A DNA stretch of 64,000 nt from Eledone cirrhosa. Taxonomy: Eukaryota. This document shows positions 8,354-61,232 of the stretch, piece after piece. Below the pieces are notes generated by a model, which worked only from the letters and a program-made list of their open reading frames with translations, was not told where the DNA came from and made no database searches. Both the position numbers and the translations under genes were made by a program. The stretch spans positions 7,626,001-7,690,000 of the forward strand of contig OZ024761.1 in assembly GCA_964016885.1 (NCBI GenBank), given 5' to 3'. How positions within the stretch are numbered: position 1 is the stretch's first letter; each line of letters begins with the position of its first letter.

Positions 8354-8664
8354 GATGATGGAACTTGGCCATTGAAATATGTATATATGTGTTTTTTTCT
8401 ATTATATATATATATATCATATATTAAATAGTTAAACAAGATTCAATGAGTACATCAAAGAATGAATTTTACAGTAGATTGGAAGCACTCTACAGAAAAA
8501 AATTATTTTCCAGTGTTATTAATATTAAAATACAAATATTAATAAAATAGATGTTCTTTTGATCAATTAAATTTTATTATACATATTTCAGAGGTACAAC
8601 AGTACGTCCTACTTTGATTAAATCTGAACCATTTAACATCTCAGGGTATGTCATGTTTCATTAT

Positions 8665-8717
8665 ATTTTGTCTGATGAGGACGTACTGTTGTATATCTGA
8701 AATATGTATAATAAAAT
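8665..8717 (+). ncRNA. Type I hammerhead ribozyme motif in fold-back element 8420-8766
   Basis: Stem I attttgt/ataaaat; core CTGATGA 8672-8678; stem II gga-c-gtac/gtat-a-tct; GAAA 8699-8702; loop tatgta; UA cleavage site 8709-8710. Confidence 0.75.
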
Positions 8718-8771
8718 TTAATTGATCAAAAGAACATCTATTTTATTAATATTTGTATTTTAATATATATC

Positions 8772-9390
8772 ATATCATCATCATCATCATCATCATCACC
8801 GTTTTACGTTCGTTCTTCCACGCTAGCATGGGTTAGACGGGTTGTCCTGTTGTGGGCAGTGTCTGGTCGGCTGACCATGCCTTGCTCATACAGGAACTGA
8901 TTTGGCTTGATTTCTACAGCAGGATGCCCTTCCTAACACCAACCTCATTTACAGTGAGTGCTGGGTGCTTTTTTGTGGCGCCTACACGTCCACTTTACAG
9001 TGTGGGCTGGGTGCTTTTTTGCCGTGGCACCTCCACGACCACCTTGCGGTGGGGGGTGTGGGGGCATATTGTCTATATGCTTCAGCTTGTACCCATGGGA
9101 GGTCGGGTACTCTGTATTACTGCGTGATGCCAGAGGTCACGGTCGTGTGTCATTGTCTTTGAGAGGTGTAATTGGGTAAGGTCGGCTTTTATCATCTCAT
9201 CCCAGGTCATCTTGGGTCTCCCCACTCCGCGGTTTCAATCGACTTCTAGTGCTCTGCATCTTTTTATGCAGCTGTCTTCCTTCATACGCATCACATGTCC
9301 ATACCAGCGCAACCGCCTCTCTTGCACACAGCATTTGATTCTTCTTATGCTCAATCTCTCTCTCAATTCGTTCATGCTTTGTCGTTCGCA
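8772..9390 (-). mobile_element. RTE LINE 3' fragment
   Basis: ERQSMNELRERLSIRRIKCCVQERRLRWYGHVMRM plus shared 3' UTR and (CAT)n on the + strand. Confidence 0.9.
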
Positions 9391-12040: not shown

Positions 12041-12772
12041 CCCTGTGATTGAACTAGAACACTTGTCATAACACACAGAGTGCCATCATCATCATCATCA
12101 TCATCAACGTTTAACGTCCGTGTTCCACGCTTGCATGGGTTTGGGCGGGGGTATTCCCACTTGAGGCAAGAGTGATTGTCTTGCTCGCATAGGACTGTCT
12201 GGCAGGTTTTCTACAGTTGGATGCCCTTCCTAACACCAACCACATTTACAGTGTGGGTCTGGGAGGTTTTTACCGTGTTGCCTACACGGCCACATTACAG
12301 CGTGGACTGTGTGTTTTTTTGTCGTGACACCTACACGATCTCATTTGTTTCGGCCTGGATGGTGTGGCACCAACATAACTTTACATAGAAGGGGGCGGTG
12401 TGGATGGGGTGGGGGTGGTGGGACGGGGGTGTATTTTGTTAGAGATGCCTGCTGGCTGTAGTAGGTTTTACTATGTATTTAGGTAAGGCGGGTCTTCTCT
12501 GTTACTGAGTACCGCCAAAGGTCTCGGTCCAGTGACATTGTCTTGGAGAGGTGTAAGTGTGTGAGGTCGGAGTTTATCAGCTCGTCCCAGGTTTTTCTAG
12601 GTCTGCCTATTCCGTGGCTACCGTCTATCTTTATTGCCCTGCACTTTGTTATACAGCTATCGACTTTCATGCGCATCACATGTCCATACCAACGTAGCCT
12701 TCTCTCGAGTAAACAACATCTGCCAGTATATATATATATATATACAATATATTAACAAATGGAAACTATATT

Positions 12773-12837
12773 TATTTCATTATAGATATTTCAAGGACAC
12801 CAAGTTAAATTATGGTGTGCTTTCATCAGATAAAATA
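12773..12837 (-). ncRNA. Type I hammerhead ribozyme motif in palindrome 12749-13098
   Basis: Minus strand reads tattttat CTGATGA aag-c-acacca taatttaact tggtgt-c-ctt GAAA tatcta TA atgaaata, with an 8-bp stem I. The mirror copy on + has a TTGATGA core (13004-13010). Confidence 0.75.
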
Positions 12838-13200
12838 TAATATAGAGCAGTTTATAAATAAATATTGAAATACCCTTAAAGAATGCAACCATTACTGTTG
12901 GAAGCTCCCGGATAGTGTATCCGGGAGCTTCCAACAGTAATGGTTGCATTCTTTAAGGGTATTTCAATATTTATTTATAAAACTGCTCTATATTATATTT
13001 TATTTGATGAAAGCACACCATAATTTAACTTGGTGTCCTTGAAATATCTATAATGAAATAAATATGGTTTTATAAATATAGTTTCCATTTGTTAATATCG
13101 TATTTTTACTCCAATTATTTGTTGAGTGCTTTATATCAGTTATAAAAATATTTGCTTGTTGTATCCCAACAATTTAAATAGAACTTCTACATATATATAT

Positions 13201-22159: not shown

Positions 22160-22914
22160 GTATGTTATTAGGTAGAATTGGTCTTTCCTCAAAATAAATC
22201 TTGATGTAATATTATGAAAGCACTCAACGATATGCAACTCATCCATCTCTGATGTTGAATATATATATATCATCATCATCATCATTTCATTTTACGTCCG
22301 ATTTTCCCTGCTTGCAAGGGTGGGACGGGAACTGATTCTGGCTTGATTTCTACAGCTGGATGCCCTTCCTAACACTAACCTAATTTACAGTGAGTGCTGG
22401 GTGCTTTTTTGCCGTGGCACCACCACGACCACTTTGCTGTGGAGTGATAGGGACCCCAGTCCTATCATCTCATTTCTACAGCTGAGTGAACTGGACCAAT
22501 GTGAAATAAAGTGTCTTGCTCAAGGAAACAACACATCACCCGGTCTGTTTTTAAATTGATTCCTATGGCTGGATGCCCTTCTTTATGCCAACCACATTAC
22601 AGTGTGTACTGGGAGCAGCACTACCACCTTATAGGGAGGATTGGGTGCTTTTTATTGTAGCACCAGCACTACTGCTTTGTAGGGTTGACTTGGTGTATTT
22701 TGTCATGACCCCAGCCTTACAGGGTGGTCTATATGCTTTATGTCATAGCACCAACATTACCACCTTACAGGATGGACTGGGTGCTGAATTAAATGCAAGA
22801 ATTGCAGGAGCTGGTCTAGTAATGTGCCAACTTCAGCATTTCATAATCAGAAGAAGAGATGTAGGTGTAAAAGCCAAACTCACTATCTTCAATTCAGTGT
22901 TCATGCTTACCCTT

Positions 22915-25860
22915 CAGGACTTCCTAATCATTGCAGGAGATTTTAACGGACATGTAGGTAAACACTGCGACGGCTTCAATAGAGTACATGGAGGCCATGG
23001 AGTTGGCACAAGGAATGAGGAAGGATTCAGACTTCTAGAATTCTGCGACGCCAATGACATGTCGATATGTAACACAAACTTTAAAAAACCCGACAACCAC
23101 CTGATCACCTATAGATCAGGGGAGCACTCTAGTCAGTTAGATTTTATCCTCATCAGAGGACGTGACAGATGGACGGTCGTAAACACAAAAGCCTTCCCTA
23201 GTGAGGAATGTACATCCCAACATAGCTTAGTTGTCAGCGACCTCACGGTCAGAACTAGACGAGCCCTGAAACAGAGGCCAACCTGGAGAAGAAAGATCTG
23301 GAAGCTGAAAGTCCCCTCAACCAGTAACAGATTTAAAGATATTTTACTCAACGCCTACGACAGTAAAGAAGAACAGATAGAGACATTTAACGTAGAAGAG
23401 AACTGGGAGTTCCTAAAAAATAACTTACTAGAGGCGACGGATGAGGTTTGTGGCTGGAGTAAGACCTCAAGCAGGAGGAGAGTGACTTGGTGGTGGAACA
23501 ATAAGGTAGATGAAGCAGTCAAGGCCAAGAGACAGGCATGGAAAGAATGGAAGAACGGGGGGAGCAGGGTACATTACATAGAGACCAAGAGGGAAGCTAG
23601 GCGACAAGTATACTTAGCTAGGAGGGAAGCAGAGGATAGAAAATTCAAGCATGTTTTACAACGTGAGGACCAGAAACAGGAGGTATTCAAGATTGCGAGG
23701 CAGTGTGTCAGAGATAGTTGTGATGTCATTGGAGAGAAGTGTATCCGGAATGATAAAGGTGAGCTTGCCCTCACAAGTGCTGAGAAGAAAGATGCATGGA
23801 AGAGTCATTATGATAGATTACTAAATGAGGAGAATGCATGGGAAGAAGAGACCCTACCCCACGTAGACCCTATAGAGGGACCAGCAGTACAAGTCAGCGG
23901 CAGCGTAGTAAGTAAGGCAATCAGAGATATGAAGATAGGGAAGGCAACCGGTCCATCGGGTATAGCTGCCGAGATGCTGAAGGCATCTGGGTCTGTAGGT
24001 CACACTATAACCACACGTATTGTTAACCAGGTAATACTAGAGGGGGCCATACCAAAAGATTGGTGCAGTAGCATCATTGTCAACTGCTACAAAGGTAAAG
24101 GCGATGCACTAGATAGAGGAAACTATAGAGGTATAAAGTTGATGGACCAGGTCATGAAAGTAACAGAAAGAGTTATAGCACAGCTGATTAGGGACCGGGT
24201 GAATATAGACGAGATGCAATTTGGGTTTGTACCAGGGAAAGGCACCACTGATGCGCTCTTCCTTGTGAGGCAATTACAGGAAAAGTACCTAGCTAAAAGT
24301 AAGCCACTCTACTTGGCATTTGTCGACCTTGAGAAAGCCTTTGACAGAGTTCCACGTGCAGTAATCTGGTGGGCTCTTAGAAAACTAGGAGTAGATGAAT
24401 GGCTTGTGAAAGCGGTACAAGCCATGTATAGGGGAGCAGTCAGCAAAGTTAGGATTGGCAATGAGTATAGCGAGGAATTTAGCGTACAGGTTGGGGTCCA
24501 CCAGGGCTCTGTTCTTAGCCCTCTCCTGTTCATCATAGTCCTGCAGGCAATAACGGAGGAGTTTAAGACCGGATGCCCATGGGAACTCCTGTATGCTGAT
24601 GACCTCGCACTCATAGCTGAATCTATGGTAGAACTAGAGAATAAATTCCAAACCTGGAAGCAGGGACTAGAGAGAAAGGGCCTCAAAGTCAACATGACAA
24701 AGACTAAGGTCCTTATAAGTAGACGAGAAAACAGAACCCAGATCCCCTCAGGGAAATGGCCTTGCTCAGTATGTAGGAAAGGTGTAGGTAGGAACTCCAT
24801 TCTTTGCCCCAAATGCAAACAATGGGTACACAAGAGATGTAGCGGGATCTCAGGAAGCTTAATTAAGAATGTAGGATTCACATGCAGCAGCTGTGCTGAA
24901 ACAGCAAGCAAACAGCCACAGGAAACAAGTACCACCAATCTCTGGGAGGGCCATGTAGAAACAGTAGACAGCTTCTGCTACCTAGGTGACCGAATTAGCA
25001 ACGGAGGTGGGTGCTCAGAAAGTACAATAACTAGGGTAAGAACGGGATGGAAGAAGTTTAGGGAACTACTACCACTGCTAGCTGCAAAAGGCTTCTCCCT
25101 CAGAATGAAAGGCAGACTGTATGATGCGTGTATCCGAACAGCGATGTTGCATGGTAGTGAGACCTGGGCGCTGAAGGTGGAAGACTTACGTAGATTAGAG
25201 AGAAACGAAGCCTGCATGCTCCGATGGATGTGTAACAGTAATATACGTGAACGACAAAGCATAAATGAATTGAGAGAGAGACTGAGCATAAGAGGAATCA
25301 AATGCTGCGTGCAGGAGAGGCGGTTACGCTGGTATTGACATGTGATGCGTATGAAGGATGACAGCTGCATAAAAAGGTGCAGAGCACTAGAAGTTGATGG
25401 AAACCGCGGAGTGGGGAGACCCAAGATGACTTGGGATGAGGTGATAAAAGCCGACCTTACCCAACTACACCTCTCAAAGTCAATGACACACGACCGTGAC
25501 TTCTGGCGTCACGCAGTAATACAGGGTACCCGACCTCCCATGGGTACATGCTGAAGCATATAAACAATATGCCCCCCCCCCCCCACCGCAAGGTGGTCGT
25601 GGAGGTGCCACGGCAAAAAAGCCCCCAGCCCACACTGTAAAGTGGACGTGTAGGCGCCACGAAAAAGCACCCAGCACTCACTGTAAATGAGGTTGGTGTT
25701 AGGAAGGGCATCCAGCTGTAGAAATCAAGCCAGATCAGTTCCTGTATGAGCAAGGCATGGTCAGCCGACCAGACACTGCCCACAACAGGACAACCCGTCT
25801 AACCCATGCTAGCGTGGAAGAACGGACGTAAAACGGTGATGATGATGATGATGATGATGA
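22915..25860 (+). mobile_element. Near-complete RTE LINE (partial APE endonuclease, RT, PHD-like Cys finger) with one premature stop
   Basis: IAGDFNGHVG, NTNFKK, SQLDFIL, SQHSLVV (APE); LYADD RT; CSVC..C..C..WVHKRC..C..C. TGA at 25336-25338 where other copies have GGA (RWYGH). (ATG)n tail. Confidence 0.95.
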
Positions 25861-41070: not shown

Positions 41071-41409
41071 CATTATATATATATATATATATATAACCAA
41101 AGATTAATATGGTTCATTGATTATTCAACGAATACAATTTTACAATAGATTAGAGGCACTCGACAAAATTTTCCTGGAGTATTTAATATTATTCAAAATA
41201 TTAATAAATGAAAAATATTCTCATAATCAAAATATATATTTTATTATACATATTTCAAAGGTACAATGGTGTTTAAGTACGTTTTCATTAGACCAAATAT
41301 AAGATTTGATATGTGACATACCACTACAGTCTTGATTATTCAATTCCAATACTGCCACTATTGGAATTGAGTAATCAAAATTGTAGTGGTATGTCGCATA
41401 TAAAATCTT

Positions 41410-41474
41410 ATATTTTGTCTGATGAAAACGTACTTAAACACCATTGTACCTTTGAAATATGTATAATAAAATAT
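41410..41474 (+). ncRNA. Intact type I hammerhead ribozyme motif, sense to NCBP3 intron 6
   Basis: atattttgt CTGATGA aaa-c-gtac ttaaacaccatt gtac-c-ttt GAAA tatgta TA ataaaatat, with a 9-bp stem I. It lies in the right arm of hairpin 41215-41495; the mirror arm has a CTAATGA core. Confidence 0.78.
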
Positions 41475-41748
41475 ATATTTTGATTGAGAATATTTCTATT
41501 TTTTTTTCCTGAAACTGCTTCTTTATAATAAACTTTCAATAATATTTTTCAAATTATTAACTTAATAAAAAGTGGCCCCGGGTGCAACCGGGCTCAGCTG
41601 CTAGTATATATATATATATATATAGGAAAAAGTATGACCTCGACGGCAGAGTTCGGGGTCATACTTTTTCCTATTTCCCACTCTACTACCCTAAGTATTG
41701 AGTACTCTGGTGCGTTATGGTCCATCTGGTTCCTTACCACAATTCCTT

Positions 41749-59844: not shown

Positions 59845-61232
59845 GTGAGGAAGAGAAATATAATACAATCCATGGTGTGGTGCTTTCTTGATGATACACC
59901 CCCTGGGGTGGGGATCTGCATCTCATTTATGTACTAGGGTCTTGTGTTCTATCTTGACATGCACAAGGAAGGTTGTCATGACTGTGATTGACACAACTGA
60001 AGGGTCCTCACAATCTTTGTTTGACAAGCTATCTACAGTTGAATGCCCTTCCTATCACATATATACACACATATCATCATCATCATCATCATTTCATTTT
60101 ACGTCTGCTTTTTCCCTGCTTGCAAGGGTGGGACGGGAATTGATGCTGGCTTGATTTCTACAGCTGGATGCCCTTCCTAACACCAACCTCATTTACAGTG
60201 AGTGCTGGGTGCTTTTTTGCCGTGGCACCTCCACGACCACTTTGCAGTGGAATGATAGGGACCCCAGTCCCTATCATCTCATTTCTACAGCTGAGTAAAC
60301 TGGAGCAATGTGAAATAAAGTGTCTTGCTCAAGGAAACAACACATCACCCGGTCTGAGAATTGAACTCACAACCTTTCGGTTGCAAGGCCAATGCTCTAA
60401 CCACTAAGCCATGTGCCTCCATGTGTGTATGTATATATATATGGAGGCACATGGCTTAGTGGTTAGAGCATTTGCCTTGCAATCGAAAGGTTGTGAGTTC
60501 AATTCTCAGACTGGGTGATGTGTTGTTTCCTTGAGCAAGACACTTTATTTCACATTGCTCCAGTTTACTCAGCTGTAGAAATGAGATGATAGGGACTGGG
60601 GTCCCTATCATTCCACTGCAAAGTGGTCGTGGAGGTGCCACGGCAAAAAAGCACCCAGCACTCACTGTAAATGAGGTTGGTGTTAGGAAGGGCATCCAGC
60701 TGTAGAAATCAAGCCAGAATCAGTTCCTGTCCCACCCTTGCAGGCAGGGAAAAAGCGGACGTAAAATGAAATGATGATGTTATATATATATGATGGCTGC
60801 TCCCTCGTTATCGAGTATGGCCATTGCACGATATACCATTATTAATAATTATTAATTAAATCGTGCAATGCCTGTGCATGAAGATATTTTTTAAAGTGAG
60901 GAAAAACTGTGCACTGAGCCAATCCCACTCTCTGAGCTACAGTAGCTATAACCCGAAAAGAAGAAAAGTTCAACATCATCAGTAACTACTGAGCCGCAGG
61001 TTTTATGTCGGAGTTATCCCAGTTTCCTGAGTTGCCTTCTCCTAGAAGAATGCCCTGACAAAGACTAGGGGTCCTTCACGCCCAGTGGTTTAACTGAGTG
61101 ATCGGGTGTCCAGCCCGACTATTTCTATGTCCCCGTGCATATACATACACATGCACCCATGTATATACACACATACATACATATATATACATACATGCAT
61201 ACATATATATATATATATATATACATACACCC

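Follow-up and report, generated by a model that had tools for sequence, protein, structure and literature searches.

Three octopus loci with type I hammerhead motifs whose helix II covaries, probably inverted 3′ ends of Penelope-like elements

The window, that is the whole 64,000-nt stretch of Eledone cirrhosa DNA analysed here, has three loci at 8.4–8.8 kb (A), 12.7–13.2 kb (B) and 41.1–41.5 kb (C), each with one intact type I hammerhead core. What kind of element left them, and was its RNA fold under selection? An earlier note had described three diverged hammerheads that share a covarying helix II with a C-C mismatch after the third pair. We find that the loci are very probably 5′-truncated, inverted 3′ ends of three related families of Penelope-like elements (PLEs), and that helix II covaries among their type I hammerhead motifs.

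The window DNA is repeat-rich and animal, with NCBP3 exons spread over 17618–63784 on the + strand. One exon is 96% identical to the Octopus sinensis protein and 94% to that of O. bimaculoides, the other exons being far lower. Locus C lies inside an NCBP3 intron, and loci A and B are upstream of the NCBP3 start codon.

Hammerhead motifs and layout of the loci

By the standard hammerhead numbering, the type I core (CUGANGA, GAAA, A15.1-U16.1 and H17) is complete at +8672 in A, −12829 in B and +41419 in C. A scan allowing one core mismatch returned four motifs in the window, these three and +13004 of B (C3U), with stem I of 7 (A), 8 (B −), 8 (B +) and 10 bp (C). The earlier range of 7–9 bp for stem I thus fits A and B and is exceeded by C. 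The strict full descriptor occurs three times in the window and is absent from all 300 locally resampled windows, so the motifs are not chance matches.

Elsewhere, matches to the core pattern had both stems in none of 52 distinct viral DNA sequences (85 loci) and in none of nine other loci (two metagenome, seven prokaryote). Metagenome contig L086, with eukaryote-like DNA, matches both core halves at 1355–1409 (−) and forms neither stem, being a chance match or a decayed copy. A covariance model from the six arms recovered only those six in the window, and none in L086 or L087. No hammerhead family was among the 4 gathering hits of Rfam or its 116 hits at E ≤ 5 in the window.

All three loci consist of two 5′-truncated copies of one 3′ end, placed head to head. 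The tail is one-sided at each of them and about 100 nt long, adjoins a TA run or (TA)n, and belongs to the long copy, the short one ending about 100 nt earlier. From the predicted cleavage site to the element end there are 158 nt (A), 138 nt (B) and 147 nt (C). The tails share a homologous motif at 8485 (+), 41156 (+) and 13124 (−), as claimed before, and those of A and C are 74% identical over 206 aligned columns.

At locus A, the long antisense arm (8522..8610, −) has helix II with the C-C mismatch, GAAA, helix III and the 3′ strand of stem I, and its 102-nt tail (8420..8521, −), homologous to that of C, forms the 3′ end of the long copy. The short sense copy (8610..8766, +) is 5′-truncated and contains hammerhead A (8665..8717, +), composed of stem I (8665–71/8711–17), the core (8672–78), helix II (8679–98, with C8682 opposite A8695), GAAA (8699–8702) and helix III (8702–09). 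Its predicted cleavage site is after A8710. A 13-bp direct repeat around the locus may be a target-site duplication, the left copy (8410..8422, +) being tentative within a microsatellite and the right one at 8763..8775 (+).

At locus B, the short arm (12749..12911, −) contains hammerhead B (12773..12837, −) with an intact core at 12829–23, predicted cleavage after 12781 and a helix II of 3 bp, C-C and 6 bp. The long arm is at 12921–13098 (+), and the 92-nt tail follows at 13099–13190 (+). At locus C, the short arm (41356..41504, +) lies on the sense strand of NCBP3 and contains hammerhead C (41409..41475, +) with an intact core at 41419–25, predicted cleavage after 41465 and a helix II of 3 bp, C-C and 4 bp. 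The long arm is at 41203–41354 (−) and its 105-nt tail at about 41098–41202 (−).

The intact core is found only in the short tail-less arm at all three loci, and each tail-bearing arm fails the core pattern. The long arm of A is cut at A9 (8610) and has no CUGAUG core, that of B has C3U at 13004, the sole substitution between the two arms of B, and that of C has G5A (core at 41285–41291). Core loss in the tail-bearing arms would fit selection for uncleaved templates; with three cases, it could be chance.

The surroundings hold other repeats. A tRNA-derived repeat with head-to-head 347-nt arms, 97% complementary, is at 60084–60779, and the same repeat begins directly after the tail of B at about 13200. 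Beside locus C, a GC-rich hairpin followed by CTAGT (41570–41608) has what we take to be a resemblance to a Helitron 3′ end. The inverted arms of C, within the NCBP3 intron, would give a double-stranded RNA of about 150 bp.

Helix II and its C-C mismatch

The helix II strings proposed earlier are present: GGA-C-GTAC/GTAC-C-TCT in the antisense arm of A, AAG-C-ACACCA/TGGTGT-C-CTT in B and AAA-C-GTAC/GTAC-C-TTT in C, each followed by GAAA-TAT(G/C)TA-TA. The layout of 3 bp, a 1x1 mismatch and then 4–6 bp is common to the three loci. As to the mismatch itself, the claim of three hammerheads with C-C needs an amendment. The core-bearing arm of A (8672, +) reads GTAT-A, making a C-A mismatch, and C-C is in the core-less arm; the two arms differ only at these two adjacent bases over 89 columns. 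Thus, C-C is present in 2/3 complete hammerheads of the window and in 5/6 arms.

The proposed covariation was confirmed. In the six-arm alignment, four of the seven shared pairs change on both sides, one changes on one side and two never change, no pair is broken, and the mismatch column never pairs in any of the six arms. The covariation score of 0.302 was reached by none of 500 shuffles (0.190 ± 0.026), and slid registers gave at most 0.105. G-U pairs are intermediates in such compensatory change.

The two arms of any one locus lack independence, and the shuffle takes no account of relatedness; tests with one arm per family were therefore added. The permutation then gave 0.012. Over 123 ungapped columns, identity in the flank 3′ of the ribozyme is 56% (A-B), 70% (A-C) and 56% (B-C), and in a neutral three-branch model fitted to this identity, the chance of all 21 cells staying paired is 2 × 10⁻⁴ to 8 × 10⁻³ over 12 settings. 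Selection on the helix II fold in the source elements is therefore supported at the sequence level. Three of the four two-sided changes separate lineage B from A and C.

Reads from 4/7 listed runs, covering at most three samples and two studies, were aligned to locus A at 80% likeness. They gave 1871 and 2072 matching contigs and 2330 and 2216 matching raw reads. Over the core, contig depth sums to about 4 × 10⁵ against 7–27 for 16 listed records, and though not a copy number, it suggests thousands of copies of family A or more. In so abundant a family, natural variants by the thousand could be used to test the importance of individual positions. Molecule ends of the reads were rejected as indicators of cleavage sites, as the libraries are RAD-seq DNA with ends at or near TTAA sites.

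Among the best-supported 40 of 121 variant rows, none falls at 8671–8693 or 8699–8717. Pairing is kept by the G/A variants at 8670 opposite U, by C at 8694 in about 100% and, at 8718 opposite U8664, by A or G in 85–97%; the outer stem I variants 8663 A>T and 8721 A>C, both common, break pairs. Position 8698 is C in 91–92% of the contig depth and 54–60% of the raw reads, giving G10.1-C11.1, the pair that is strongly preferred in type I hammerheads, not absolutely. This pair is G-U in the window copy of A and A10.1-U11.1 in B and C.

For the mismatch, the variant rows listed at 8695, its 3′ base, hold only insertions and loose ends with no substitution. In the loose-end consensus sequences, a single 6-bp distal helix carries one or the other of two 12-nt loops II, both C's being present (106 and 124 reads of one run, agreement 0.67 and 0.76). 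Hence helix II is longer in other copies of family A, its distal part having 6 bp like that of B. The reads point to C-C in family A, the 3′ C not being counted directly.

Was the mismatch kept for a role or just inherited? By the same neutral model, both C's would survive in the three lineages with a chance of 0.03–0.25, and the feature was chosen after being seen, so selection on C-C is unproven from three families. These figures are suggestive only, and we put selection on C-C itself at about even odds. Of the earlier claim that the fold was selected, the part on helix II pairing therefore stands and the part on C-C is not established.

Slightly short of an even chance, we judge, is that the mismatch is inherited in the same elements from an ancestor common to all three families and has no role at all. 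This agrees with the chance figures, with the loss of C-C from one arm of A and with single published hammerheads that have other mismatches there, U-U in Clonorchis 2 and C-A in S. purpuratus 1 (Figure S3 as interpreted, in the portion of PMC4209133 covered). It agrees less with the flank, where only three of the 28 columns containing any C are invariant, or with helix II itself, where the adjacent pairs changed on both sides and the two unpaired C's did not. Moreover, a single change to G would gain 5.5–6.7 kcal/mol and none is seen, and loop II varies within family A in the reads while both C's remain.

The C-C loop may instead be kept to loosen a long helix II, at a cost of about 5.5–7 kcal/mol relative to a closed pair, or as a contact point. 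That such a conserved loop, three pairs from the core, is a functional module in an abundant octopus lineage of PLE hammerheads is a tentative and rather doubtful reading. If true, C-C would dock stem I or the element's protein in place of the usual contact between loops I and II. This would be a new way of tuning a hammerhead, in a new structural subclass missed by the Rfam models, and an entry point to the activation of PLE ribozymes; otherwise, the result is routine annotation of a repeat missed by the current Rfam. A pseudoknot of loop II was rejected after a search of B and C, B having only AU-rich 5–6-mers and C none.

Source of the inverted copies

The PLE features seen are an inverted 5′-truncated copy joined at the 5′ end at 3/3 loci, a hammerhead close to the 3′ end, a TA run next to every tail and the palindromic helix III of the PLE minimal hammerheads, full in A and C and 6/8 in B. 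The high abundance of family A in the reads matches an element family as well. Counting against PLEs are the tails of 92–105 nt compared with the published 30–40 bp, the absence in all three of the extra nucleotide that is typical after A9, the A10.1-U11.1 pair of B and C, the lack of an Rfam match, the unfavourable helix III duplex of B and the preference of window hammerhead A for another fold. EN+ PLEs have a reading frame that encodes a telomerase-like RT with a GIY-YIG endonuclease. No GIY-YIG match or linked PLE reading frame was found in the 113 of the window's 217 open reading frames that were scanned, and the 41-aa open frame of arm C, used as a protein query, gave no match; the window copies are truncated before any such frame.

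The RVT_1 frames of the window were rejected as partners, having the AP endonuclease or PHD finger of the LINE type. One such LINE has a 927-aa frame at 22555–25338 (+) with AP endonuclease, RT and then a PHD finger after RT, and fragments of its type are at 13.9–15.5, 38–41 and 46–48 kb.

In a source PLE, about 140–160 nt would separate the hammerhead from the 3′ end. On a tandem transcript, two copies would pair through helix III as a dimer, which would bring about self-cleavage of the precursor RNA after AUA as in the published class, probably with assistance from the element's protein. Reverse transcription from two start points would then yield the long and short arms.

Helix III is an 8-nt palindrome and as a monomer hairpin is unfavourable at +4.7 kcal/mol. 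As a duplex, it has 8/8 in-register pairs in A and C (−2.2 kcal/mol) and 6/8 in B, where two central mismatches make it unfavourable (+2.7 kcal/mol). In isolation, motifs B and C favour stems I and II; hammerhead A of the window favours another fold, with helix II pair probabilities of 0.04–0.07. In the whole-locus folds, the ribozyme is buried in a hairpin. The window copies are likely silent by these predictions, because transcription always reaches the antisense arm before the ribozyme, which this arm is predicted to trap in the long hairpin.

The reads also bear on how the copies arose. Of 24 joints, 15 are listed, and in 12 of these a long antisense copy meets a sense copy at truncation points other than those of the window copy, so the head-to-head layout recurs with independent junctions. 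About 320–340 reads per raw run extend upstream of 8609 with a common sequence, showing that the window copy of A is truncated. Both arms of A carry minority bases at 8698/8590 and 8718/8570, as expected from copying off one template.

Some observations touch on splicing. A splice-donor-like motif, GGTAT(G/T)TC, is 20–45 nt upstream of each core (about 8645, 12957 and 41387), and the read-derived sequence upstream of 8609 contains a pyrimidine run ending in TAG. PLE ends frequently contain an intron.

Other sources were weighed against these results. The source might not be a coding PLE's 3′ end but a short non-autonomous PLE derivative or a retrozyme-like RNA borrowing a PLE enzyme. The lack of a reading frame in the above searches and the abundance of family A are in its favour, and animal retrozymes have been argued to derive from PLE ends (10.64898/2026.07.22.740005, in the part covered). 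But the head-to-tail tandem monomers of retrozymes are missing here, no array covering these loci among 69 rows, and the copies are 5′-truncated at many points in a family that extends upstream of the window copy. We consider such a source unlikely. A foldback or MITE-like DNA element moving as a whole inverted repeat, with the hammerhead as a relic, would account for the long, near-perfect arms, and the read joints could then be central deletions of one palindromic ancestor. Nevertheless, the tail is one-sided, the centres differ between the loci and each locus has arms that resemble one another more than they resemble most of the family. The stems also stay paired as RNA, G-U pairs included, and DNA transposition would exert no selection for this. 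We judge this origin very improbable.

Least probable of all is that the intronic copy C cleaves the NCBP3 pre-mRNA and thereby regulates the host gene. The copy does have an intact core in the intron on the gene's sense strand, and stems I and II are favoured in its isolated motif. Yet the fold predicted for the whole locus puts its core inside a hairpin (−199 kcal/mol), transcription passes through the antisense arm first and there is no dimer partner in the same orientation nearby.

Comparison with known systems

PLE ends are known to carry type I hammerheads with long helix II, palindromic helix III and low dimer activity, a dimer being the presumed cleaving form where helix III is palindromic, as far as the covered portion of PMC4209133 goes. 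Pairs on opposite strands lie 100–700 bp apart there. This published class, missing from the earlier note, lowers the surprise of the present loci. In the literature searched, the octopus motif is without description and nothing joins hammerhead, C-C mismatch and stem II; the PLE-hammerhead survey of Lunse et al. 2017 and the Repbase and Dfam libraries lay outside that search and may contain the motif.

The palindromic-helix-III examples of D. willistoni, Aedes aegypti and Saccoglossus share the type I topology, the long helix II and a helix III implying dimers. The published copies are dispersed singly or on opposite strands as here, and helix II is bulged in D. virilis. Stem I differs, being 7–10 bp and AU-rich here but 4–5 bp there, and so does the junction, where no nucleotide separates A9 from 10.1 here and A10.1-U11.1 occurs in 2/3 families. 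The Saccoglossus 2 and Marsupenaeus examples also miss a feature of the PLE minimal consensus that is absent in A, B and C. A mismatch common to diverged families is not described in the covered portion of PMC4209133.

Animal non-LTR retrozymes are short non-coding repeats with type I hammerheads, as are the present loci, but they form head-to-tail tandem arrays in contrast to the head-to-head truncated pairs here (covered parts of PMC7229834 and 10.64898/2026.07.22.740005). In O. vulgaris, PLEs make up 6.83% of the genome in 190 families, and the covered part of that study does not mention ribozymes (PMC13282606).

PLEs in general leave an inverted truncated copy with a 30–40 bp tail at (TA)n targets, according to the parts of PMC8557442 covered. 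In the same parts, the Hydra-clade PLEs, including Hydra-1_Obim of Octopus bimaculoides, have the same (TA)n targets, a 3–4-bp helix III, cleavage often after A and a type I hammerhead about 100–200 nt from the 3′ end, as here. The hammerheads listed for the clade, that of Hydra-1_Obim among them, have different sequences and a fully paired helix II. The present 11–12-nt motifs were absent from the supplement searched, where line breaks can hide matches. Hydra-clade elements are recognised by an RT with DKT and RWK motifs and an EN lacking CCHH, and Neptune too favours microsatellites, so loci A–C, which have no linked reading frame, are not assigned to a clade.

PAc, a Poseidon element of Anolis, has two RT start sites and a protein-assisted hammerhead (PMC11167929, in the part covered). 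The two starts explain an optional tail and its targets are AT-rich, both like the present loci. PAc, the one element tested, transposed in vitro without cleavage. Its reading frame begins at stem II and its tail is 30–40 bp; here, no long frame starts from the core ATG in the copies of the window, and the tail has about 100 nt.

The octopus loci therefore differ from the published consensus by the missing nucleotide after A9, the long AU-rich stem I, the tail of about 100 nt and the shared C-C loop. The covariation across these diverged octopus families supports that the fold was under selection in their elements.
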